Below, piece after piece: positions 3,948 through 44,020 of a stretch of DNA of 64,000 nucleotides. The stretch is from contig NZ_JABXKP010000038.1 of the NCBI RefSeq assembly GCF_017114985.1, positions 12,357 to 76,356 on the forward strand, given 5' to 3'. The first letter of the stretch is position 1, and each line of letters begins with the position of its first letter. The notes beneath the pieces were generated by a model that saw only the letters and a program-made list of their open reading frames with translations, made no database searches and was not told where the DNA came from. This DNA comes from Nostoc sp. JL33 (GTDB taxonomy: Bacteria > Cyanobacteriota > Cyanobacteriia > Cyanobacteriales > Nostocaceae). A program made the position numbers and the translations under genes.

Positions 3948-5582
3948 TTAACTCAAATATCGGATCAATAATGACTCTAGCTGGACTATCTGAATTGGCT
4001 TAACAAGGTAGTCATTGGCACTACCTGGCAGCATGGTAATTTCCTCTTCTAAAGGTTCGCTAGAGGTGATCATTACAATTGGCAACCCTTCCCAAGAAGG
4101 CTCTTGTCTAAGAATATTCAGCAAATTCAAGATGCTAACATCGCGGATTAACTCGAAATCAAAAAAAACTAAATCCGGTTGGAGGTTTTGCACCTATTTC
4201 AAAAAGTCATTTCCATTTTCTATCCGCTTGGCTTGGTAGCCAATTGTGTGCAGATAATCTTGCAACACTGTAGCAGTATTTTCCTCTTCTTCCACAACCA
4301 AAATGGTTTTATTTATGGGGATGACTGGGGAAGAGGAGAACAAGGCAAAATCTGCTCCCTCATCTCCCTCATCTCCCGGATGCACTGGATTTGGTAGAAA
4401 CAGAGTGAACTGACTACCTTTTCCCAAAGTCGATGTCATGGTAACATCTCCACCATGTAAACGCGCTAATTTGCGTGTTAAAGCTAAACCCAAACCAGCG
4501 CCTTCATACTGCCGATTTAACCGACTGTCAAGCTGTTTAAACGGTTGAAATAGGAATTGAAACTGATTTGAGTCTATACCAATTCCAGTATCTGAAACTG
4601 TAAACGTTATCCCTTGCGGTACTTTTTTGACTGTCAGCGATATCTGACCGGCTGGGGTGAATTTAATCGCATTGGTGAGCAAATTGAGTAGCATTTGCTT
4701 GATGCGCCGTTCATCACCAATACAAATATCCGCTTCTAGGTCAATTTCAGATGTGAGTTGCAATCCCTTTTCTAAGGCGCGATCGCGCACTGTCCATATG
4801 GCATAATTACATAAATCTAACACTGGCAAAGGTGAGAGTAACAGTTCCTCTTTGCCTGCTTCTACCTTAGATAAATCAAGGATATCGTTAATCAGTGCCA
4901 GCAGATGTTCACCACTACTATATATAGAATTTACATATTCGTTCTGCTTTTCATTGAGAGAGCCAATTCTTTCTTGTTGCAACAACTGTGACAAACCCAT
5001 AATCGCATTCAGAGGTGTCCGCAACTCATGGCTCATGGTTGCTAAAAATTCCCTTTTTGCCCGATTGCCAGCTTCTGCTGCTTCTTGACAGGCCCGCAGT
5101 TTCAACTCTGTTTGCTTTTGTTCAGTAATGTCTTCAATCATCGCTAGAAAAAACTCAGGTTCACCATTACTGCCTGGTATAACAGAAATAGAGATATGAG
5201 TCCAAACTAAGCTACCATTTTGATGTAGGCAGCGTCTTTCTATCTCAAGGCGATGTCTGGCAATAAGTTGTTCTTGATGTTCAAAGGGTTGGCAGCCGAC
5301 TCTCGAAGTTTTCTTTAAGTCTGTGCGAATTTCTGACATCAGTTGTTTGTAAAGTTTTAAATCCCCCCTTTCTGTGGGAATGTAATCTGTAAAGGGCTTG
5401 CCGTATAGTTCTTCTCTGCTGTATCCAAAAATCTCGCACAGTGCCAGATTAGTATCGACTATCTGCGCTTTCATATCTATAAGCCCAATGCCGATAGGGG
5501 AACGCTCAAAAATCGCCCGGAATTGTAAAGCCTCTTGGGCTTGCTTGTACTCTGTAATACCTCTAGCCAACATCACCTGCAT
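3948..5582 (-). pseudogene. PAS-HisKA-HATPase-REC hybrid histidine kinase with an in-frame TAG (4194-4196) inside the receiver domain
   Basis: H-box MSHELRTPL, N/G boxes (LLTNAIKF, DTGIG, GAGLGL). ORFs 4194-5582 and 3948-4193 are contiguous in one frame: NDFLK*VQNLQPDLVFFD...YLVKP. Confidence 0.8.
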
Positions 5583-7174: not shown

Positions 7175-7274
7175 ATGATTAACGGGGATGAGGGGGATGA
7201 GGGGGATGAGGGAGAATAACTTCTAACTCCTGTACAGACAAAGATTTTTCGCGTCTCTGCTCCTAACTCCTAAC

Positions 7275-7706
7275 TTAACCTTGAAATATATCCCAAAACA
7301 GCATTAGGGAAATCACCAACAACATCACGCCTGCCGATTTTTCTACAGTTTTTGGGCTGAGTCGGGTTCCTATCCAACTACCTAAAAGCACACCTAATAA
7401 GCTGGTGGTTATCAGCGCAGTCGCAGATCCGATAAATACCACCCACGGCGAATGAGATTGTGCACTCATTAACAGCGTGGATAGCTGAGTCTTATCTCCA
7501 ATTTCTGCTAGAAAAATGGTTACAAAAGTTGTACCAAAAACTACTAGCACTGATTCCTGCTTTTGAGGACTATCGGCAACTACACGCTCAACTGGCTCAA
7601 CAGCGATCGCAGGAGTTAAGCTCAAATCAGTGCTGTCTTTCAGTTCTAGCTCAATCTCAGTCTGAGATATGCCAGAAATGTCCAAAGGAGCAGAGTCAAG
7701 TTTCAC
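7275..7706 (-). CDS. Half-size UPF0016/GDT1/TMEM165 transporter (Hmx1-like)
   Basis: Single EIGDKTQL motif, three hydrophobic helices, acidic N-terminal extension. Confidence 0.88.
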   Translation of the reverse strand: MKLDSAPLDISGISQTEIELELKDSTDLSLTPAIAVEPVERVVADSPQKQESVLVVFGTTFVTIFLAEIGDKTQLSTLLMSAQSHSPWVVFIGSATALITTSLLGVLLGSWIGTRLSPKTVEKSAGVMLLVISLMLFWDIFQG

Positions 7707-7806
7707 AGGTAATAGTTTTGTTGCTAGATTCTTTCATATTTCTATCATATTCTCAGATTGCTATAATAAATTGCAACTTTACAGAATAAAACGAGTAGTG
7801 GGAGTG

Positions 7807-8157
7807 TCACAGCCCTACAGCTTTATTGAAGCGTAGTATTTCCAGACTGCGATCGCCATATACTCCCTCTATTTGCTGGTGACAGCAGTCAATAGCAAAA
7901 TCGTTGACTTCTTCTGGTTCAACCCCATACATATCTTGAAACACTTCTGATTCCACACGGCAGAAGCGAGGACGAGTTGAGTAGATGCGACATTCTCGTG
8001 TGGTATGGTCGAAATTAATGCACCATCCTCCTTCGCCTACCATGCTGAGGTAGAGTTCTAGTTCTGGTGGTGAGAGATATTCTTCTAAGTCTGGACGCTC
8101 TGCTGGATCAAGATTACAGCAGGCTCCACATTGCTTTACACATTGCCAAGTTGACAT
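7807..8157 (-). CDS. YkgJ-family cysteine-cluster protein
   Basis: CxxxCGACC, WC, CxIYxxRPxxCR motifs. Confidence 0.88.
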   Translation of the reverse strand: MSTWQCVKQCGACCNLDPAERPDLEEYLSPPELELYLSMVGEGGWCINFDHTTRECRIYSTRPRFCRVESEVFQDMYGVEPEEVNDFAIDCCHQQIEGVYGDRSLEILRFNKAVGL

Positions 8158-11888: not shown

Positions 11889-12797
11889 TTACTGAGAATA
11901 CTCTTTGCGCCAAGCCTGGGGAGGTAAACCGTGATGTTGGCGAAACTGGCGGGAGAAATGAGACACATCCTGATAGCCCAATGTTTTGGCTATCTTCTCG
12001 ACTGTCTGATTATTATTTTGGAGTAAAAAACGAGCACCCGCCATCCGGCGTTTAACAATCCAGCAGTTTACAGTTTGTCCTGTCTGCCTTGCGACTCGGT
12101 TAGTTAAGTAAGCAGGTGAGTAACCAACAGCAATAGCCACATCACACAAAGTAATTCCTTCATGATAATGGGCTTCGATAAAGTCGAAAACTTCTTTTAA
12201 TTGGGGAATGCAGGGAAAGATTGACGACGAATCAGGGTTCATGGCTTCTCTACCAGAGGCTTCTGTACCAGAGGCTTCTGTACCAGAGGCTTTGCCAACG
12301 CCAACGCCAACGCCAACGGCAACACCAACACCTCCAGCGATCGCTGTAGTATTATCTCTAAATACTGATTTTGCAGCTTTTTCAAATTTAATATTGCACC
12401 AGTATTGGAGACTAGCTTGCTTTTCCAAGCGAATAGCGATCGCTCTGAGCAATTCATCTAGTGTCGAGGGTTTGGTAAGATAGTCGTCTGCTCCCAATTC
12501 CATAGCTTTGCGAACATCTGCTTTGGTACTACTGCCAGTCAGAAAAATGAAGGGAATAATTGCTGTAAGAGGATCTTGGCGTAGCGTAGTTAAAACGCTA
12601 TAACCATCCATATCAGGCATCGTGATATCGCAAATCACTAAGTCGGGTATACGCTCTTGTGCTTTTTGAATACCTGCAAGACCGTTGTCAGCACCTATGG
12701 TATCAAAACCTTTAGCCTCAAGACCCTTTAAATAAAGATTGCGAGTAACCTTATCATCTTCAATGACGAGAATTTTATTTGAGGATTCGTACACCAT
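11889..12797 (-). CDS. Response regulator, REC plus AraC HTH (scytonemin regulator, NpF1278-like)
   Basis: ILVIEDD/DLVICD/TKP receiver, C-terminal AraC HTH (LGYQDVSHFSRQFR); position divergent from scyA. Confidence 0.92.
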   Translation of the reverse strand: MVYESSNKILVIEDDKVTRNLYLKGLEAKGFDTIGADNGLAGIQKAQERIPDLVICDITMPDMDGYSVLTTLRQDPLTAIIPFIFLTGSSTKADVRKAMELGADDYLTKPSTLDELLRAIAIRLEKQASLQYWCNIKFEKAAKSVFRDNTTAIAGGVGVAVGVGVGVGKASGTEASGTEASGREAMNPDSSSIFPCIPQLKEVFDFIEAHYHEGITLCDVAIAVGYSPAYLTNRVARQTGQTVNCWIVKRRMAGARFLLQNNNQTVEKIAKTLGYQDVSHFSRQFRQHHGLPPQAWRKEYSQ

Positions 12798-12935: not shown

Positions 12936-14915
12936 TCATAACTCGGAGCGGGGAAACTCTGATTTGATTAATGGCAACATCACGGTAAACGTCGTGCCTA
13001 CATCAAGTTGACTTTCTACAGAGACTTGACCGTGATGTAAATCTACAAGGGTTTTAAGAATCGATAGTCCTAGTCCAGTACCAGGTATACTATCAATATT
13101 ACTACCACGGTAAAATGGCTCAAATATTCGTTGTTGATCTACTACTGAAATACCGATTCCCTGATCTTTTACCTGAAAAATTACTTGCTCATTTTGGCAA
13201 TATAATTTCAACTCAATTGCAATTTTTGAGGAAGAATACTTGATTGCATTATCGAGCAAATTCCTCAAAATAGGCTCTAAGAGTTTTTTATCTATGCAGG
13301 CTGTTAGGGACTTATCTTGACTTACAAAATTAATCGGGATTTGGCTAATACTCATCTGCATTTGTGCAACTAAATCATTACAGAACTGAACTAAATCAAG
13401 CGGTTTTGGCTCACAGTTAATTTTTGCTGATTCTGCCTTAGAGAAGAACAAAATATCATCCAACATCTGGCTGAGTTGTTCGGTAGCTTTTTCAATGTGA
13501 TCGAGTAATGGTTGTATTTTTTTCTGTGTACGTTTGTCTACTTCTTCCTTTAGTAAGCTATTAGAAAATGAAACAATATTTAGGGGAGTTCGGAATTGAT
13601 GGCAAACCATAGAAAGAAAACGCGCTCTAAGTTCGCTAAGTTGTTTTGCTTGTTCTAAAGCTTGGTTAAGACCTAATTCTGCATATTTGTAATCGGTAAT
13701 ATCGATGCCTGCAATCAGTTCGACTGGGTTTCCTCCAAAATCCAGCACTCCATCTAGCATGGCAACCGCACAGGCTAGCCAGCGCTCTGTGCCGTTTTTT
13801 GTCAAAAGATTTATCTCCTGATATTCAAAGTTACTTGCTTCACCTTGGTTGCGTACCTGCCGACGTTTTTTGCTTTTAATCAGTCGGTGCAGTCCAAAGC
13901 TTGTTAGCAGTTCCTCTTTTGTATAGCCAGTGAGTTTCTCTACTGCTGGATTTATGTAGCAAAGCCGCGTGCCTTGAATCAGAAAAGTGCTGGCATCTGT
14001 CGTTTCTGCTAAAGTCCGAAATCTAGATGCGTTCAGCCGCAATGCTTCTTCAGTCTGTTTCGATTCAGTAATGTCCCAAATACTCCACACTCTACCAATA
14101 ATTTTGCCCTCAAGCCACTGAGGTTTCGAGTAGTGTGTAAAAACTCTCCCATCTTTCAACTCCAGAATGTCGTAACTCTCGAAATCAGATTGGCTAGACA
14201 CTTCCCAAATCAGGCGACTAAAGGCTTGGGGATCTTTAAGTTGGCTCTCAAAAAAGTCTTTGCATCGAGGACATTTCTTAGATAGTATCAAGGACTCCGG
14301 GATCTGCCACATATCGATAAATTTCTGATTCAAACTCAGAATATCTCCCTCGAAGTTAACTGCAACAATACCAATGGCAGTAGATTCGAGAGTAGAACGA
14401 AGCAAAGAAAGAGATGTTTCTAATTCTACTTCTTTTGCCTTGAGTTGAGAAAATTCCTGTTGCAAATGGTCTTTAGCATCCCTTAATTCATCAGTCCACT
14501 TTTGCACGCTCAGTTCTACTATCTCATCACTTTTCTCACGAACAAAGGCACAGCCAAATTCCATATCTTGCTGTTTTACATAGCTCATCGATATTTCTAC
14601 CAGAAAGATCCGACCTGCTTTTGTCCGGTAGCGAGATTTAAAGGTAAGGGAACCCTGTGAGCTAATATCTAACCAATTGTGTAGAGAAAAGTCTACGTCT
14701 ATATCATGCAGCCTCATGGAAAGTAATTCCTCACGGGAATACTCAGTCATTAGGCAAGTGGCATCGTTGACGTAAAGAAACTGCGCGTTTGCTCCTAAAC
14801 AGAAGGCAGCATCTACAGCGTGATTTATTAGGAAGTGAGCAAACTTCATTTCTACTTCTGGTTGTGCCGTCGATTGATTGTTTGATTTAGCTAATATATA
14901 ATCGCCAGAATTCAT
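12936..14915 (-). CDS. PAS-domain sensor histidine kinase (NpF1277-like)
   Basis: Several PAS domains, H-box HQFRTPL, NAIKYS, DQGIG, GTGLGL; upstream of the response regulator. Confidence 0.92.
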   Translation of the reverse strand: MNSGDYILAKSNNQSTAQPEVEMKFAHFLINHAVDAAFCLGANAQFLYVNDATCLMTEYSREELLSMRLHDIDVDFSLHNWLDISSQGSLTFKSRYRTKAGRIFLVEISMSYVKQQDMEFGCAFVREKSDEIVELSVQKWTDELRDAKDHLQQEFSQLKAKEVELETSLSLLRSTLESTAIGIVAVNFEGDILSLNQKFIDMWQIPESLILSKKCPRCKDFFESQLKDPQAFSRLIWEVSSQSDFESYDILELKDGRVFTHYSKPQWLEGKIIGRVWSIWDITESKQTEEALRLNASRFRTLAETTDASTFLIQGTRLCYINPAVEKLTGYTKEELLTSFGLHRLIKSKKRRQVRNQGEASNFEYQEINLLTKNGTERWLACAVAMLDGVLDFGGNPVELIAGIDITDYKYAELGLNQALEQAKQLSELRARFLSMVCHQFRTPLNIVSFSNSLLKEEVDKRTQKKIQPLLDHIEKATEQLSQMLDDILFFSKAESAKINCEPKPLDLVQFCNDLVAQMQMSISQIPINFVSQDKSLTACIDKKLLEPILRNLLDNAIKYSSSKIAIELKLYCQNEQVIFQVKDQGIGISVVDQQRIFEPFYRGSNIDSIPGTGLGLSILKTLVDLHHGQVSVESQLDVGTTFTVMLPLIKSEFPRSEL

Positions 14916-16062: not shown

Positions 16063-16503
16063 ATTGACAACCACATCAAAAGATTTTCTATTGTAAATTT
16101 GGGATATGTCGTAGCAGCGATGCCGAAGGCGGGCTACGCCTACGCAGAATTTCAATCTTTCAGAATGACTAAGTTGGAAATGTCGCATTCAGGATAAAAG
16201 CGAAAGAATTGACACCCAGATCAAACGATTTTTCATTGCAAATTAGGTTTTCATCATAATAGTTAAGAACCTTCCCAGGCGGTTTAGTAGTAAGTAGGCG
16301 TAGCCCGCCGCAGGCATCGGTGCTATTAAAGCTAGCTGTATTAAGCTTTGTAAAGATTCTGAGATGTGTTTGAGTTCAGGCTAGTTGCTAGTTTATATCG
16401 CTCTGGATGATTTAGCTTTTTCCCCGTCAATCTACTTAAGTACTGTAGGCATCACCATAGAAGCGAAAAATTTGACATGCTTATCAAAAGATTTTTGATT
16501 GCA
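16063..16503 (+). promoter_or_regulatory. Three copies of a 33-bp motif WTTGACA-N5-ATCAAAAGATTTTYNATTGYA upstream of scyA
   Basis: Copies at 16063-16095, 16208-16240, 16471-16503, each preceded by AAGCRAAA. Function is inferred. Confidence 0.7.
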
Positions 16504-16743
16504 CAACGGTCTTCGTCTCCTTTATTCTGGTGACAAGAAGCACAGCCTCAACTGTTGTATGCTTTTGGTAAAAATTTTTTGGTACTGCGCTCATAAGCAT
16601 TAATCAGCAGCGATCAACCATTTCTACTATCGACCAAGCTAGGTCATAGCTGTAAGAAACTACAGAGTCGTTTGTATTAAATATGTCTAGCGCTGTGATT
16701 GTAAACTAAAAAGCCTTTCTTTTGTGTAACTTTATGTAATTAC

Positions 16744-18633
16744 GTGAAACCAATGAGTCAAAACTATACTGGTTCAAACTCTCCTCTAATCACCACTGAG
16801 CCATATAAGGAATTTCCAGCACACAGCTATGTAGAATCTACCTCTGACTCCCGTAAGCTTGATGAATCGGAGAATAACGAGGGAATTCAGCCTTTTTTAA
16901 ACGACGAGATCGCCCCAACGCTCTCAGTTGCCGATGCGATCGCTCAAATGTTGGAAAATTTGGGAGTAAGCTACGCCTTTGGTGTCGCAGGTGGTGCGAT
17001 GGCAAGCATTTGGGGTGCCCTATCAAATAGCAGTATAGAGGTATTAAACTTCCGCCATGAAGCAGGAGCCGCATTTGCAGCGACTGAGGCATACTTTGCC
17101 AATAGTCGCCCGGCTGTAGTTTTTACCACAGCCGGGCCAGGGATCACAAACGCTCTGACTGGATTATTTGCGGCTCGTGGTGAAGGTGCAAAGGTGATTT
17201 TGCTGTCGGCTTGCACCTCAGCACCGCAGCGTGGACGCTGGGCAATTCAAGAAACCAGCACTTACACATTGCCCAGTGGAGGAATGTTTACCTCAGGAGC
17301 GCTATTCAACTATGCAATCACTATTGAATCTGCGGCTCAACTCCCGCAAATTTTCCGCAAACTTGCTTTAGCTATGGCACAACCAGGCGGATTTGTTGCC
17401 CATTTGAGCATTCCCACTGCTGTGCAAACAAGTTTAGTTGAGAATATAGCTTTACCCCAACTAGATGTTTCTCAGTTTGCGATGACTGCTTCAAAAGAAG
17501 CGATCGCTAAATCTGTAGAGTTATTATCATCTGGCCCCTTTGCTATCTGGGTTGGTTTCGGTGCGCGTGACGCAGCAGACGAAATCCTCCAACTCGCAGA
17601 AAAAACCGGAGCTGCGGTGATGTGTTCACCCCGTGGTAAGGGTATCTTCCCGGAAGATCATCCCCAGTTTGTGGGTGTCACAGGTTTAGGCGGTCATGCT
17701 TCCGTCTTCACTTATATGGAACAGCAACCTCCACTACGCACACTCGTATTAGGAACCCGCCTTGGTGAACCGACTTCCTTCTGGAATTCGGCGCTAGTTC
17801 CAAAAAGAGGTTTTGTACATGTAGATATTGACCAAGAAGTGCCAGGGGTAGCGTATCCACACGTTGAAACTTTTGGGGTTCGGTCTGAAATCAAAGCCTT
17901 TGTGCAAGAGTTGTTGCAGCAATTACCAGATGCTCCTCGTTCCACAATGTCGTTACCTCGTCCAGAACACAAAGCAATCGAACCCGCACCAGATGTAGAC
18001 TATCCAGTGCGACCAGAAGTATTGATGGCAGCAATTCAAAAGATCATTGTTGAGGGTAGCGATGCGGTAGTAATGGCAGAGTGCGGTAACTCCTTTACTT
18101 GGTCAACTCATCTACTGCAATTTGCCCAAGCCAATCGTTACCGAGTCAGCACCGGAGTTGGAGCAATGGGTCACGCTGTCACTGGAGTGTTGGGTGCAGC
18201 ACTGGCGAACAATAGCAAGGCTGTAGGTATTGTTGGCGATGGAGCAATGCTGATGAATAACGAAATCAGCACAGCTGTGAAATACAAAATTCCGGCGATT
18301 TGGATTGTACTCAACGACGCGCGTTACAACATGTGCCATCAAGGGATGAAAATCTTGGGATTAAAGGGTGCAGACGCAACACTTCCACCAACAAACTTTG
18401 CGATGATTGCTCGTGGTATGGGAGCAGAAGCGATCGTCGTCGTCAGAGAGTCGGATATTGAAGCCGCATTAGAACAAGCGATCGCTTCAACTGTTCCCTT
18501 TCTGATTGATGTAGTGATTGACGCTGATCGCCCAGCACCCTCTGGTGGACGTAATAAGAGTTTAGCTGCACAAGGAGTTAAATCAAGTCCGGCGAAAAGT
18601 GCAGCCAAGCAGGTTTCATTTCCAATGGTTTGA
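16744..18633 (+). CDS. scyA: ScyA, ThDP-dependent acyloin synthase
   Basis: RHEAGAAF, TTAGPG, GDGA...N ThDP motifs; first gene of the cluster. Confidence 0.95.
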   Translation: MKPMSQNYTGSNSPLITTEPYKEFPAHSYVESTSDSRKLDESENNEGIQPFLNDEIAPTLSVADAIAQMLENLGVSYAFGVAGGAMASIWGALSNSSIEVLNFRHEAGAAFAATEAYFANSRPAVVFTTAGPGITNALTGLFAARGEGAKVILLSACTSAPQRGRWAIQETSTYTLPSGGMFTSGALFNYAITIESAAQLPQIFRKLALAMAQPGGFVAHLSIPTAVQTSLVENIALPQLDVSQFAMTASKEAIAKSVELLSSGPFAIWVGFGARDAADEILQLAEKTGAAVMCSPRGKGIFPEDHPQFVGVTGLGGHASVFTYMEQQPPLRTLVLGTRLGEPTSFWNSALVPKRGFVHVDIDQEVPGVAYPHVETFGVRSEIKAFVQELLQQLPDAPRSTMSLPRPEHKAIEPAPDVDYPVRPEVLMAAIQKIIVEGSDAVVMAECGNSFTWSTHLLQFAQANRYRVSTGVGAMGHAVTGVLGAALANNSKAVGIVGDGAMLMNNEISTAVKYKIPAIWIVLNDARYNMCHQGMKILGLKGADATLPPTNFAMIARGMGAEAIVVVRESDIEAALEQAIASTVPFLIDVVIDADRPAPSGGRNKSLAAQGVKSSPAKSAAKQVSFPMV

Positions 18634-30088: not shown

Positions 30089-30120
30089 ATTGACACCTAA
30101 TCGAAAAATTGTTCAGCGTA
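30089..30120 (+). promoter_or_regulatory. Fourth copy of the scyA-type motif, upstream of trpE
   Basis: AAAGCGAATAA-ATTGACA-CCTA-ATCGAAAAATTGTTCAGCGTA; 4-nt spacer. Confidence 0.6.
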
Positions 30121-30325
30121 TTATCTGCTTGATATCTAGTACTCTTAAATAAGAAGCAAAAAGTTTTTCATTACATCTTTTAAAAAAAAACACACAAGTT
30201 TGGATAATTTCAATTAGATTGACATCGAATTATCTTGAGTCGTTTTTATTTTGAAGATAGTTATCAATAATAATTAATGGCTTTTGGCTAATGACTGGCT
30301 AATAAATATTCCAGAGAGATTACCT

Positions 30326-38708: not shown

Positions 38709-39770
38709 ATGATTATCATACTTAAGAGCGGTACACCTGTTGAGGAAATTACTCGGATTAGCCAAGAACTGAGTGACACTTGGGGAGTCACGGTAGAAAA
38801 AAGCATTGGCACTCATAAAGTTGTGCTGGGGCTAATTGGTGATACCACTAGCATCGATAAATTACAGGTTCAGGAGTTCAGCCCTTGGATTGAGCAAGTA
38901 TTACGAGTGCAACAACCTTTCAAGCGGGTTAGCCGAGAATTCCGACATGGAGAAGCCAGCGAGGTTGTTGTACCCACGCCTAACGGTGATGTCTATTTCG
39001 GCGAACGTCACCCGATCGTGGTGGTAGCCGGGCCTTGTTCCGTTGAAAATGAAGCGATGATTGTGGAGACAGCAAAGCGGGTGAAGGCAGCAGGAGCACA
39101 GTTTCTGCGTGGCGGAGCTTACAAACCTCGCACTTCACCTTATGCCTTTCAAGGTTATGGCGAAAGCGCTTTAGATTTATTAGCCGCAGCGCGGGAAGCT
39201 ACTGGTTTGGGCATCATCACAGAACTGATGGATGCTGCGGATTTATCAGCAGTGGCGAGAGTCGCTGACGTGATCCAAATCGGAGCGCGAAATATGCATA
39301 ACTTTTCGCTGCTCAAAAAGGTAGGCGCTCAAGATAAACCTGTGCTGCTGAAGCGGGGGATGTCTGCAACAATTGATGAGTGGCTGATGGCGGCAGAATA
39401 TATTTTGGCATCAGGAAATCCGAATGTGATTCTTTGTGAGCGGGGAATTAGAACCTTTGATGGTAAATATGCCCGCAATACTTTAGATTTATCGGTGCTT
39501 CCGGTGTTGCGATCGCTTACCCATTTACCGATTATGATTGATCCTAGTCACGGTACGGGTAGGTCTGAATATGTTCCATCAATGGCAATGGCTGCGATCG
39601 CAGCTGGTACAGATGCCTTGATGATTGAAGTTCACCCCAATCCAGCTAAGGCTTTATCCGATGGCCCCCAATCTCTCACTCCTGATAAATTTGACCGTTT
39701 AGTTGAAGAAATGTCAGTTCTGGGCAAAGTAGTCGATCGCTGGTCTACACCTGCATTTGCCTGCATTTGA
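38709..39770 (+). CDS. aroG: DAHP synthase (type I-beta with N-terminal regulatory domain)
   Basis: AGPCSVE, GGAYKPRTSPY, QIGARN, LKRG, CERGIR, DPSHG. Confidence 0.95.
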   Translation: MIIILKSGTPVEEITRISQELSDTWGVTVEKSIGTHKVVLGLIGDTTSIDKLQVQEFSPWIEQVLRVQQPFKRVSREFRHGEASEVVVPTPNGDVYFGERHPIVVVAGPCSVENEAMIVETAKRVKAAGAQFLRGGAYKPRTSPYAFQGYGESALDLLAAAREATGLGIITELMDAADLSAVARVADVIQIGARNMHNFSLLKKVGAQDKPVLLKRGMSATIDEWLMAAEYILASGNPNVILCERGIRTFDGKYARNTLDLSVLPVLRSLTHLPIMIDPSHGTGRSEYVPSMAMAAIAAGTDALMIEVHPNPAKALSDGPQSLTPDKFDRLVEEMSVLGKVVDRWSTPAFACI

Positions 39771-40070
39771 GCGCATTGGTGAAAGCCACATTCTCCTCAC
39801 CGAATTTTAGATTTTAAATTTTGGATTTTGGATTCTTGGGCGTTGCCTAAGAAGAGAAGATTCTTGCATCCAAAATTTAAAATTAAATGACTTGCCCCTG
39901 ACTTGATTGCTCTTTTTAATTCTTCAATTCTTCAATCCAAAATCCTTGCATTGTTTGACACCAGAACTCTCAAGGTAGATAGACCCTCAAACCGATTTTT
40001 TGCAAACGGCTAAAACTGATTAACAGATTCTTTCCTTGGAAAAAATCCGTTGATCAGTTTTTCTTACACT

Positions 40071-40104
40071 ACCCCGCCCTGCTGACACTGAGAGCGGGGT
40101 TTTT
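40071..40104 (+). terminator. Putative intrinsic terminator downstream of aroG
   Basis: ACCCCGC...GCGGGGT stem followed by a T-run; flanked by two further hairpins (about 40012-40061 and 40104-40139). Confidence 0.5.
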
Positions 40105-40165
40105 AGCTGGATTTCTCAGTTGTGAAAAATCCGGGCTAGAAGGGTAGTGATTGCAGCGTCTGTAA

Positions 40166-40280
40166 TAGACCTCTTGTAAAAATCCCTAACACCCCAACCC
40201 CTCCTCGCTTGCTCTTAGGGGAGACAAAGCGTAGCTTTGGCGGGGTGGGGTTCTTATTTTTTATTTATACAAGAGGTCTA
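40166..40280. mobile_element. MITE-like element, TIR TAGACCTCTTGTA
   Basis: Perfect 13-bp TIR at 40166-40178 and 40268-40280. Confidence 0.75.
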
Positions 40281-40355
40281 ATGAATTTTATTACTTTGGA
40301 TGTTTTTGGATTAAATAATCTGAATTTTCATACCTTTTCAAACACCCTCTAAAGA

Positions 40356-40503
40356 TTTGACAAATTTATCAAAAGATTATTCATTGCAATATAATTCTTA
40401 ATTAAAATATAACCTTATTACACACTATTGAGTCAAATGTTCTATCTTCTCCTTTAAAAATATCTAATATTTTGATAGATTTATCAAAACATTTTTCATT
40501 GTC
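40356..40503 (+). promoter_or_regulatory. Fifth and sixth copies of the scyA-type 33-bp motif
   Basis: TTTGACA-AATTT-ATCAAAAGATTATTCATTGCA (40356-40388); TTTGATA-GATTT-ATCAAAACATTTTTCATTGTC (40471-40503). Confidence 0.7.
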
Positions 40504-40717
40504 CTTAGAAGTGAAATAGCATAAATTAGAGATGTAAGTAGCATTAACTAACAATTGATTATCTTCACTTGATAAGGTAATCAATTAAACTTAGAGCTAC
40601 TAACTAGTTGTGCTAACAAAAAAACAACATAAAAGTCATAATCAAGACTTAATTTGTCTGTTTTATGTTGCTATGCTAGCAAGATTTTTATTCTAAGAAC
40701 TAGGAGGATTAGTCCTG

Positions 40718-41401
40718 ATGGCAGATTTAAATAATAGTGGTACCGGGAACTCTTCTAGTGCCGCCGACAAGTTGAGAGATTCACCCTTCGGTCGCTTAAA
40801 TGAAGTTCTGAGTGATAAAGAACTCTCCAATATATTCAGTGGTACCGGTAATAAAGAAGGTAGCGGTAATCCATTTGGTGCTAGTGGCACTGGCACTGGT
40901 AGTGGCACTGGCACTGGTAGTGGTAGTAAGCCTGATTTAGCCTATGGTGGTAATCCTTTCGCCGGTGACAACTTTTGGAATATCTTTGCAGGCGGTGTAA
41001 ATCCATCCGCAGGCGGTGCTAACCAGGGTACTGGCAAAGACCCTTTGACTGGTGCTGGCAGCCAGGGCAGTAGTATTAGCACAACTAAAATACCAGACGG
41101 ATTGGGTTTGAGAGTTACTATTGATAACCTAGTTAACTCCAGGCTTAAAGAGGCACAGGGTGGCGGCGGCATCCCCTCATCTGGAAGTGGCGGCATCCCC
41201 TCATTTGGAAGTGGCGGCATCCCCTCATTTGGAAGTGGCGGCACCCCGTCATCTGGAAGTGGCGGTATCCCGTCATTTGGTGGTGACGGCATCACATCAT
41301 TTGGAAGCGGGGGCATCCCATCATCTGGAAGTGGCGGCATCCCCTCATTTGGTGGTGGCAACATCCCCTCATTTGGTGGTGGCGGCATCCCGTCCACTTA
41401 G
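40718..41401 (+). CDS. Gly/Ser-rich repeat protein, unknown function
   Basis: GGAGG RBS; ten 8-aa GGIPS(F/S)G(S/G) repeats (24-bp unit, about 41165-41398). Confidence 0.75.
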   Translation: MADLNNSGTGNSSSAADKLRDSPFGRLNEVLSDKELSNIFSGTGNKEGSGNPFGASGTGTGSGTGTGSGSKPDLAYGGNPFAGDNFWNIFAGGVNPSAGGANQGTGKDPLTGAGSQGSSISTTKIPDGLGLRVTIDNLVNSRLKEAQGGGGIPSSGSGGIPSFGSGGIPSFGSGGTPSSGSGGIPSFGGDGITSFGSGGIPSSGSGGIPSFGGGNIPSFGGGGIPST

Positions 41402-41646
41402 TAGCTAGAATCATTAGAATCTTTGGAACAATAATGAGTCTTTCAGTACATACATACTATGCTAGTTGACTATGTTATGCACTGAAACTCTTTATTAGTA
41501 AAAACTTTAGGCGAGATTTTCTGTCAGGTTGACAGTGAAGATGATTAAAGCTTTTATTTAGATAGAAAGATTTTGGGTTCAGCAAATTCATACCTGGCAT
41601 AACGGGTACTGAAAACCCCAAAATTTTTTAACTAAAAATAGGAGAA

Positions 41647-42933
41647 TTGGTACTAATGGAAGCATCTGCTGTCAATCCGATTAATGGTGAGGTTAACACT
41701 TTTAGTGCCACTGGCGATCGCAACCTGTATAGCGGTAGTTCCTTTGCTACCAATGGCAGTTTATATCCTGAAGGCAGCTTGTTGACAGGTGGTAGCAATC
41801 TCTTTGCAGGTAACAATCCCATTCCAGGTGGCGGTATCAACGCCTTTGCTGGCGATGGTGGCAGTAAGCTTCAGCAATTAATCTTTGATCGCTTGAAGTT
41901 AGTTCTGGGTGAAAATTTTTTCCAGCGCACTGACAACACATTAGCAGGTGGAAATAACCCATTTCTAAACGGTGGCAATCTCATTGCAGGTGGCAGTACC
42001 AACCCCTTTGCTGGCAACAGTAATCCTATAGCAGGTGCTGGAAGTCTGCTTCAACAATCGCCTTTCGATCCGTTGAGAGAAGTCCTTGGTAATAATATAC
42101 CTTTTGGTAACAGTGGCAATACGTCTAATGCTGCTATTAGTAGCCCACCCTTTAATCAGGGCAAGGCACCCGTTGGTAATAGCAACAGGAACTTTGGTAG
42201 TAACAACGCAACCATTGGTAATTTTAACTCGGATTATGGCAGCAACAGCGCAACCATTGGCAATGGGAACTGGAACTTTAATCAGGACAACGCAACTATT
42301 GGTAATGGCAACTGGCTATTTGCAAGTGATAACACAACCCTTGGTAACGGTAATTGGTATTGGGACAAGGGAAATAATAATGCAACATTAGGTAATGGTA
42401 ATTGGAACTTCAGGAGTAACAACGCAACCATTGGAAATGGCAATTGGGACTTCGGTAAGAACAACACAATTATTGGTAATGGTAACTGGGTTTTTACAAA
42501 TGGAAATACAATCATTGGTAATGCCAATTGGCTAGCGGATAGTGACAACATAACCATTGGAAACATCAATAACCCCAGCATTTTAGGGTTATTTCCGCAA
42601 GGAATCAAGACTAATGTTAACAATCTGATTGACTCCCTTATAGGTAAAATAGGTCAAGATTTTGTTGGGTTAACAGGAGATTTTGATCTATCAAGTAGCC
42701 AGACATTTAACCGACTCATTTCTTCTAAAAGTGCTGGTATTAATGACACTAATTATCTTAAGGATATTGGGCAACTTTTGGCATCACTCAGCAAAATTCA
42801 AGGGAATGTGATTAATTATCAGCCTGTGCAAAACCCTCAGCCTGTTCCAGAACCTGCTTCTTCAGTGCCTCTGGTAGTAATGGGACTTGTATGTTTGCTG
42901 TTATCAGTCTTCAAAAAACAACAACGCTGTTAA
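41647..42933 (+). CDS. PEP-CTERM protein with nine 14-aa NATIGNGNW repeats
   Basis: AGGAG RBS before TTG 41647 / ATG 41656; C-terminal VPEP+TM+KKQQR. Confidence 0.85.
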   Translation: MVLMEASAVNPINGEVNTFSATGDRNLYSGSSFATNGSLYPEGSLLTGGSNLFAGNNPIPGGGINAFAGDGGSKLQQLIFDRLKLVLGENFFQRTDNTLAGGNNPFLNGGNLIAGGSTNPFAGNSNPIAGAGSLLQQSPFDPLREVLGNNIPFGNSGNTSNAAISSPPFNQGKAPVGNSNRNFGSNNATIGNFNSDYGSNSATIGNGNWNFNQDNATIGNGNWLFASDNTTLGNGNWYWDKGNNNATLGNGNWNFRSNNATIGNGNWDFGKNNTIIGNGNWVFTNGNTIIGNANWLADSDNITIGNINNPSILGLFPQGIKTNVNNLIDSLIGKIGQDFVGLTGDFDLSSSQTFNRLISSKSAGINDTNYLKDIGQLLASLSKIQGNVINYQPVQNPQPVPEPASSVPLVVMGLVCLLLSVFKKQQRC

Positions 42934-43192
42934 GGTAAATTTAATTCTTAAAAGCTAGTAGAAAAGGTTTTAGAGGATGGCTCGTACTTGTCGTGGATTG
43001 CTCCAGACCGCAAATCCAAAAACACTAAATTTCACCATATTGCATCTAGGGCTATTTCATTCTATACATAAACCGCCCAGAACTAAAGTTCTAGGCTATA
43101 CGGCAGTGAAACCCAACATGAACAAAGATCAATGTTGGGTTCCCCTGCGGGATCACTTGGCTTTTACCTTTCCGCTTTTGCTGTGATGTCTC

Positions 43193-44020
43193 TTAACCGA
43201 AACGTCCACTGATATAATCCTCAGCTTCTTTGGTTTGAGGAGAACTGAACATTTTAGCTGTAGGATTAAACTCTACTAATTTTCCGCGACGTTTGCCATG
43301 CTCGTCAATTTCTGTATTGAAGAAAGCCGTGAAATCTGCGACTCTGGAAGCTTGCTGCATATTGTGAGTCACCATGATGATGGTGTATTGTTGCTTGAGT
43401 TCCAAACAGAGTTCTTCTACTTGGCGGCTAGAAATTGGGTCAAGAGCAGAACATGGTTCATCCATCAATAATACATCTGGCTTCATCGCGATCGCTCTTG
43501 CTATGCAAAGCCGTTGTTGTTGTCCGCCAGATAATGCAGTACCCTTCTCTTTAAGTTTATCCTTGACTTCATCCCAGATAGCAGCGCGTCTGAGGGAATC
43601 TTCCACCAATTCATCAATGTTACCTTTGTAACCGTTAGCACGCGGGCCAAAGGAAATGTTTTCGTATATTGACTTAGGGAAAGGATTCGGTCTTTGAAAA
43701 ACCATTCCGACTTGGCGGCGTAATTTTACAGAATTGATCTTAGGATCGTAAATGTTGCGATCGCGGTAATTAAGTCTACCCTCAACCTTAGCACCAGGGA
43801 TTAAATCATTCATCCGGTTGAAGCAACGCAGTAACGTACTTTTACCACATCCTGAAGGCCCAATAAAAGCAATAATTTGTTTATCAGGAATCTTTAGGTA
43901 GACATCCAAAAGTGCCAGAAATCCCCCATAGTAGACCTTCACACCTTCAACATTAAATACGCCCTTGTCTTGGTCTATTGTGGCACTATCTGATTGACTT
44001 ATACTATTGCTATGAGTCAT
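43193..44020 (-). CDS. pstB: Phosphate ABC ATPase
   Basis: [38 protein letters not shown]. Confidence 0.96.

Follow-up and report, generated by a model that had tools for sequence, protein, structure and literature searches.

A candidate operator shared by the scytonemin operon and a neighbouring pair of repeat-protein genes in Nostoc

The DNA analysed here, referred to as the window, is a stretch of 64,000 nucleotides (contig C52:12357-76356) from a 7,108,391-bp Nostoc-type genome and contains a complete scytonemin locus. Downstream of aroG, at the end of the scytonemin (scy) operon, it carries a pair of genes for repeat proteins, called below the Gly protein and the repeat protein, followed by a convergent pstSCAB operon. 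Comparison of sequences within this genome and across related ones indicates that the pair probably extends the scytonemin regulon as a co-regulated unit with a promoter of its own, the same operator-like motif (the ‘scy box’) standing before scyA and before the pair. An extension of this kind had been suggested in an initial annotation of the window. Boxes, co-occurrence with scytonemin genes and position of the pair uphold that interpretation, whereas the identity proposed for one of the genes, NpR1259, does not stand and the PEP-CTERM label holds only in part.

The scy box and the predicted promoter of the pair

The scy box is a 33-nt motif, TTGACA-N5-ATCAAAAGATTTTTCATTGCAA, mostly with AAAGA(A/T) just 5′ of it. 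Motif search and genome-wide scanning with a position weight matrix (PWM) found three copies on the plus strand in front of scyA (16064-16096, 16209-16241 and 16472-16504; scyA starts at 16744) and two, also on the plus strand, in front of the pair, namely box 1 (40357-40389) and box 2 (40472-40504), which lies 115 bp downstream of box 1. The last two copies had been noticed in the initial annotation, where the coordinates 40356 and 40471 carry one flanking base. These five boxes, with PWM scores of 44.8-55.5 versus 22.8 for the best background site, are the only ones in the entire genome and are confined to two intergenic regions, in each of which they point toward the downstream genes. With a PWM built from 41 sites, for which the chance rate is approximately one match ≥14 per 7 Mb, they are the sole matches ≥20 in 14.2 million positions; below 20, a single chance site (14.2) reaches 14, besides box 2, a palindrome, when read on the reverse strand (18.7). 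Each set of boxes also retrieves the other. A PWM derived from the three scyA boxes alone gives 40357 as the top non-training match genome-wide (41.3 versus a background of 19.1), with 40472 tying for second place, and a PWM derived from the two pair boxes alone gives the three scyA boxes as its top three non-training matches.

Such a picture could in principle arise without any regulatory meaning, from fortuitous matches or from the spread of a mobile repeat, given that a miniature inverted-repeat transposable element (MITE) lies ∼75 bp upstream of box 1 and that the region is AT-rich. This explanation is effectively refuted by the restriction to five genomic copies of fixed orientation, by a shuffle control in which none of 100 shuffles attains the observed count, and by the retention of boxes at orthologous positions in genera between which the flanking sequences do not align. 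Furthermore, the flanking DNA of the copies is unrelated from one copy to the next, so that they represent a motif and not a duplicated segment.

Directly 3′ of box 1 stands a TATAAT −10 hexamer (40390-40395, plus strand), the top promoter-like match in the region; in most of 22 aligned upstream regions, the same hexamer or a near variant follows box 1. Since box 1 ends at 40389, an activator site there would extend over the −35 region in the manner of class-II AraC-type promoters, and the features of that class are found at this place: a site over −35, a recognizable −10 and no good −35 element. Transcription of the pair would accordingly be predicted to start near 40402. Between aroG and the boxes lie an intrinsic-terminator-like hairpin (40071-40104, plus strand; −14.7 kcal/mol with ViennaRNA; a GC-rich stem followed by TTTTT) and the MITE-like palindromic element (∼40166-40280; hairpin of −48.2 kcal/mol), which has 58 blastn matches in the genome, 14 of them of ≥100 nt. 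Terminator and MITE had both been named in the initial annotation and are borne out by their hairpin energies and genomic copies; its claim of a separately promoted unit is supported as well, given that the operator-like boxes of the scyA promoter recur at the pair. The leader between the boxes and the start codon, of ∼200-300 nt (40510-40717 in the window), is well conserved among Nostoc copies and includes a further TTGATAAGGTAATCAA palindrome at 40569; a search of 39700-43300 against Rfam for a leader RNA element gave only sub-threshold hairpin matches.

Two regulatory genes, divergent from the scy operon in the map of open reading frames (ORFs), adjoin each other beside it. They encode an AraC-type helix-turn-helix response regulator (11889-12797, minus strand; Pfam Response_reg, HTH_18 and HTH_AraC), the orthologue of Npun_F1278 (ScyR), and the scytonemin sensor histidine kinase (12936-14915, minus strand; NCBIfam NF045595 HK_scytonemin, 1105 bits versus a cut-off of 865). 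Three boxes upstream of scyA are likewise present in Nostoc punctiforme (genome G020, which we take to be strain PCC 73102), in genome G005 and in genome G021, which appears to be Nostoc flagelliforme CCNUN1; a ScyR-overexpressing strain of N. flagelliforme is available (PMC13707963). In N. punctiforme, deletion of the regulator or the kinase lowers the scy operon ∼200-fold and leaves ebo unaffected (PMC9127174). The dependence of the operon fits the three boxes at scyA of that strain, and the independence of ebo agrees with the genome-wide PWM scans of the present genome, in which no scy box was found at the ebo genes.

There are good grounds to infer that the response regulator binds the scy box. 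The boxes of the pair would then be operator sites for the activator that drives the scytonemin operon, most likely the adjacent system responsive to ultraviolet A (UVA) and formed by the scytonemin histidine kinase and the AraC-type regulator (Npun_F1278/ScyR). Box 1, placed over the −35 region of the promoter with TATAAT at 40390-40395, would act in a class-II activator layout, and the pair, set off from aroG by terminator and MITE, would be transcribed as its own unit and switched on jointly with scyA-aroG. The resemblance to the control exerted in N. punctiforme by Npun_F1277/Npun_F1278 (scyTCR; ScyR in N. flagelliforme) includes the same regulator genes beside the cluster, the three boxes at scyA and the strict dependence of the operon (PMC9127174). 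It is limited by the fact that the published direct target is Npun_R1276-R1260 only, whereas the pair is a second box-bearing unit, absent from that strain, from which the published RNA-seq data come.

Another factor might instead bind the boxes, for example an ultraviolet (UV) or stress regulator, or an alternative sigma factor reading TTGACA...CATTG, the pair then being co-expressed with scyA and not a direct target of the two-component system. The box does open with a perfect sigma-70 −35 hexamer, TTGACA, and the two-component system influences 527 genes in N. punctiforme, many of them indirectly (PMC9127174). However, this possibility is unlikely: the motif is restricted to scyC-positive genomes, the conserved span of 33 nt is far longer than a sigma-factor element, the regulator dependence of the scy operon reaches the magnitude cited above, and in genome G048, from another family, the box stands immediately beside the regulator gene, before both scyA and eboA-C. 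Direct control of the pair by the scytonemin two-component system is retained here as the preferred explanation.

Within the operon itself, a degenerate box (30090-30121, plus strand) with a spacer of 4 nt instead of 5, TTGACA-CCTA-ATCGAAAAATTGTTCAGCG, lies ∼190 bp upstream of trpE and matches at 14 of 19 downstream positions. It may mark an internal promoter; the relaxed gapped pattern has seven other matches in the genome, which makes this weak evidence.

Distribution and layout of the pair

The initial annotation had proposed co-occurrence with scytonemin genes as a check. With scyC as the marker, 301 genomes of the family contain the repeat protein in 130 cases and scyC in 153, and 127 of the 130 genomes with the repeat protein have both. 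Only 3 of 148 scyC-negative genomes encode the repeat protein (Fisher P = 8e-54, a value that ignores kinship among genomes), and these three cases comprise one 174-amino acid (aa) fragment and two assemblies of 92% and 68% completeness. Conversely, some 83% of the family's scyC-positive genomes contain the pair. When both genes share a contig, the repeat gene lies at the 3′ end of the cluster in 58 of 65 cases, 10.6-32.9 kb (median 26 kb) from scyC. This being the common layout, the linked arrangement of the window is probably ancestral, and dispersal as seen in many Nostoc genomes derived.

In other lineages, homologues are found inside the scy cluster: in the order scyF, 191 aa, 346 aa and eboA in Synechocystis sp. 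PCC 7509; trpD, 303 aa and 724 aa in Rivularia PCC 7116; aroG, box, 357 aa, 176 aa and 571 aa in Scytonema hofmannii PCC 7110; and scyF, one fused protein of 667 aa and trpE in G048. A box scoring 16-42 follows aroG in six other genera and directly precedes the repeat gene in two more, and weaker, sub-threshold box-like sites occupy matching positions in several further genera.

Of 36 further genomes belonging to the genus, scyC is present in 30; the pair accompanies it in 20 of these and is found in none of the six scyC-negative ones. In all 20 pair-bearing genomes (19 loci inspected in full, that of G001 by pattern search alone), two boxes in the same orientation, typically 115-117 bp apart, precede the Gly gene. 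These boxes persist when the pair is not linked to the cluster. No aroG, trpD or pst gene lies within ∼6 kb of the pair in the 19 fetched loci, and in complete genomes the pair lies 3.67 Mb from scyC in G005, 1.58 Mb in G021, where its position is ∼2.34 Mb, and, on the opposite strand, 55 kb in G032. The linked layout with both boxes is also seen in Nostoc genomes G216 and G301. A degenerate box pattern run on 61 genomes matches only in scyC-positive Nostoc and in G048, and the reversed control pattern has approximately zero matches.

Linkage and boxes might also reflect a common need under UV and desiccation, if the pair were a general sheath, exopolysaccharide (EPS) or stress module with no specific role in scytonemin biology. 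Such a role would suit the absence of the pair from N. punctiforme and 25 other scyC-positive genomes, the lack of enzyme-like domains in both proteins and the general association of PEP-CTERM proteins with EPS (PMC12188702). It is nonetheless quite improbable in view of the near-exclusive co-occurrence with scyC, all exceptions being fragments or incomplete assemblies, and of the insertion of the pair inside the operon, between scyF and ebo or trpE, in several lineages.

A comparable accessory set is the ebo cluster (eboA-F), a satellite locus of the scytonemin pathway in N. punctiforme, which like the pair is located inside scy clusters or dispersed, depending on the lineage. The two differ in regulation, ebo being outside scyTCR control in N. 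punctiforme (PMC9127174) and devoid of boxes in the present genome, whereas the pair keeps its boxes when dispersed. They differ also in content, with enzymes and transport functions on the one side and repeat proteins on the other.

NpR1259, with which the 18-gene cluster as first defined ended, occupies the slot right after aroG in N. punctiforme, and the initial annotation had suggested that one gene of the pair might correspond to it. This is refuted. The gene following aroG in that genome encodes a YflT-domain protein of 314 aa with two transmembrane segments, in keeping with the published description (PMC2726228), and this membrane protein is unrelated to either gene of the window; conversely, no homologue of either pair protein was found in N. 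punctiforme. The Npun_R1259 orthologue of the present genome (87% identity) is located at C9:96354-97313, unlinked to the scy cluster. NpR1259 is therefore not a conserved member of the cluster, and it has been described as absent from other scy clusters (PMC2726228).

The two proteins and their possible role

The upstream gene (40718-41401, plus strand) encodes the Gly protein, a leaderless Gly/Ser-rich protein of 227 aa with 26.9% Gly and 16.7% Ser. Its N-terminal head, SPFGRLxEVL, is followed by FSGVG, one NPFAG-bearing GGNPFAGDNFWNIFAGG unit and a short helix motif; at the C-terminus stand 9.5 consecutive GGIPSFGS repeats, which correspond in the DNA to 9.5 copies of a 24-nt repeat. A double-glycine leader, LSDKELSNIFSG, was considered for this protein and rejected, as the motif is not kept outside Nostoc. 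The downstream gene (41656-42933, plus strand; best start ATG 41656, behind AGGAGA) encodes the leaderless repeat protein of 425 aa, in which a disordered N-terminal part with NPF/FAG motifs precedes a beta-solenoid-like GNGNW region (seven G(N/D)(G/A)NW units, encoded by a 42-nt repeat), a helical domain and a VPEP-transmembrane-KKQQR tail. Both ORFs have strong Shine-Dalgarno sequences, and their start codons and N-termini are conserved across genomes. The motif that the initial annotation saw as common to both proteins, SPFGRLNEVL versus SPFDPLREVL, is real but short (pairwise E 0.044). In G048, the N-terminus of the fused protein is homologous to that of the Gly protein (E 2e-12), so that the two genes of the window correspond to modules of a single protein elsewhere.

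No family of Pfam or NCBIfam matches either protein at E ≤0.01, and a profile search of Protein Data Bank (PDB) sequences yielded nothing beyond a meaningless match (E 0.59). An AlphaFold2 model of the repeat protein, built on an alignment of 57 sequences, displays disorder over residues 1-180 except for a helix at 66-84, paired short strands over 185-301 with a predicted local distance difference test (pLDDT) score of 55-71, a helical domain at 307-379 and a transmembrane helix at 404-424. The stranded region recalls the ice-binding beta-roll of Lolium perenne (PF21300, LbR_Ice_bind), which shares 14-residue repeats with a high content of N, G, T and I. Longer homologues of the repeat protein score 51.2 and 26.8 bits versus a cut-off of 30, and 3 of 57 homologues reach E ≤0.1. 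The repeat protein of the window itself has no match to this family, however, and each of its repeats contains a Trp. The fold assignment is tentative and carries no evidence for ice binding.

The initial annotation had described a Gly/Ser-rich gene and a PEP-CTERM repeat gene. Composition, repeats and the arrangement of the tail conform to this description: the C-terminal sequence VPEPASSVPLVVMGLVCLLLSVFKKQQRC of the repeat protein comprises a VPEP motif, a transmembrane helix and the basic KKQQR, and by the positive-inside rule the bulk of the protein would lie outside the membrane. The PEP-CTERM label is otherwise imperfect, since the tail scores 14.5 bits with TIGR02595 (cut-off 16), has no Pfam match and is not accompanied by a signal peptide. 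Among the 57 homologues, the C-terminal helix is present in 55 and a strict PEP motif in 44, and PF07589 is detected at E ≤0.1 in 13, one of which passes the cut-off. The Gly protein of this genome is devoid of any PEP-CTERM tail. Its small Gly-rich counterpart in Synechocystis sp. PCC 7509 (P0187, 191 aa; locus L044, 9310-9885) has a PEP-CTERM tail of its own and no signal peptide, which indicates that the anchor was gained or lost within the small-protein lineage.

Cyanoexosortase B (CrtB, TIGR04156) is encoded on contig C84 of the present genome (495.9 bits versus a cut-off of 300). CrtB is essential for scytonemin production, and ScyD, ScyE and ScyF are PEP-CTERM proteins processed by this enzyme (PMC12188702). 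Like the pair, these three proteins are encoded in or with scy clusters, and the VPEP motif, transmembrane helix and basic cluster are shared; unlike the pair, with its low-complexity repeats and beta-solenoid-like region, they have clear Sec signal peptides and beta-propeller/NHL folds. The unit encodes two paralogous leaderless proteins rich in Gly, Asn and Phe, one mostly disordered and ending in GGIPSFG, the other with a beta-solenoid-like GNGNW region, a helical domain and a PEP-CTERM-like membrane tail. It would form an accessory, non-essential module acting most plausibly at the envelope or sheath stage, beside ScyD/E/F and cyanoexosortase B. A role in the sheath or as a pigment scaffold is plausible. 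A more specific and rather doubtful proposal makes the pair a structural component: the leaderless proteins would be exported without a Sec signal, perhaps via the PEP-CTERM tail and cyanoexosortase B, and the disordered Phe/Gly chains and Trp-laddered beta-solenoid would build a matrix by which the aromatic pigment, or its monomer, is bound or retained in the sheath.

Several observations weigh against the regulon extension or the envelope role attached to it. As regards the proteins, a signal peptide is absent from both members of the pair and from all 57 homologues, none of which reaches a hydropathy of 2.0; over the N-terminal 45 aa, 12-residue hydropathy peaks at 0.12 in the repeat protein and at 0.19 in the Gly protein, versus 2.04-2.16 in ScyD/E/F. 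The pair proteins are consequently atypical PEP-CTERM proteins that lack one defining feature of the class, and an extracellular location would need an export route independent of a Sec signal. The AlphaFold2 model of the repeat protein has low confidence (mean pLDDT just 43.6), and Foldseek retrieved nothing from the PDB at E ≤0.001, its top matches being beta-helix proteins that all have E >0.09. As regards distribution, the pair is absent from 26 of the 153 scyC-positive genomes, the model producer N. punctiforme among them; it is hence accessory and cannot be essential for scytonemin synthesis or deposition. As regards the boxes, none scoring ≥15 is found in seven genera with the linked arrangement or in three with an unlinked pair; loci L046, L050, L051, L058 and L063 have no site ≥5, and several other box-less loci have sub-threshold sites only. 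Within Nostoc, the boxes stand out just modestly from a fairly conserved leader (8.4 and 7.9 versus 7.3-7.6 for the remaining leader on a 0-9 scale). This footprint being uninformative at such divergence, it is the cross-genus conservation of the boxes that bears the argument. Finally, neither an operator for the regulator nor a mention of the pair was found in the openly accessible literature searched, subscription-only papers such as Naurin 2016 and Janssen and Soule 2016 being outside its reach.

The scytonemin locus, further box-bearing loci and implications

On the ORF map of the window, the scy operon (16744-39770, plus strand) comprises scyA-F, a glycosyltransferase gene, tyrA, dsbA, aroB, trpE, trpC, trpA, tyrP, trpB, trpD and aroG. 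ScyA, ScyB, ScyC, the ScyD/E family, ScyF and the DAHP (3-deoxy-D-arabino-heptulosonate 7-phosphate) synthase all score above the curated cut-offs of their NCBIfam profiles. The spacer after aroG also contains a second short repeated element (39780-39960) with TTTTGGATTTTGGATT / CCAAAAT-type arms and 110 blastn matches in the genome.

Boxes were also encountered at further loci. In N. punctiforme, a single box at L036 (G020 chromosome 5791000-5803000; box 8085-8126, minus strand, score 32.7) lies ∼220 nt upstream of an ORF (7410-7871, minus strand) for a leaderless protein of 153 aa, which consists of GIPTEGSFDPTKY repeats and has a GGIPSFGG end resembling the tail of the window's Gly protein. 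Box and gene recur in G021 (L038, 70% identity), a variant of the box occurs in at least 13 Nostoc genomes, and the present genome has no homologue of the protein. This repeat gene is a candidate for a further regulon member in the model strain. On a plasmid of N. punctiforme (L035; G020 contig C3, 120000-132000), a box at 7230-7271 (minus strand, score 35.2) lies ∼620 nt upstream of genes for a group-1 glycosyltransferase, a Pyr4-like transmembrane terpene cyclase and a protein of the amino-acid-kinase family, which could form a box-controlled cassette of the meroterpenoid type; the long distance weakens the link.

In G021, a strong box at L037 (chromosome 6992000-7004000; 7416-7457, minus strand, score 43.2) precedes three genes, for a secreted protein of 214 aa with a PEP-CTERM-like tail, a ScyD/ScyE-like paralogue of 442 aa with a signal peptide and a PEP-CTERM tail, and a putative UV-damage endonuclease, judged by eye from the sequence. 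This arrangement suggests that the box regulon takes in further envelope proteins. At L039 of G048 (C5:109000-128000), boxes are located at 4898 (minus strand) and 6190 (plus strand), one facing scyA and the other, immediately beside the regulator gene, facing an eboA-like gene, eboB (TatD), eboC (UbiA) and tyrA. In this genome, ebo may thus be under box control, unlike in N. punctiforme.

The genetics of scytonemin has been built almost wholly on N. punctiforme, a strain without the pair. What is new here is that the candidate operator is shared and that the pair retains it away from the scy cluster. A candidate operator for the scytonemin response regulator could be used in defining the direct regulon and in engineering UVA-inducible expression or a higher pigment yield. 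The accepted view of PEP-CTERM export is challenged by a conserved family that has an exosortase-type tail and lacks a signal peptide. An accessory module of this kind may explain missing steps between periplasmic dimerization and deposition in the sheath, and may help explain why heterologous hosts yield monomers only. If the pair were indeed a structural component, the UVA regulon marked out by the scy box would be a wider one of envelope proteins, taking in the box-preceded small GIP-repeat protein of N. punctiforme and N. flagelliforme and the box-preceded ScyE-like paralogue of N. flagelliforme.

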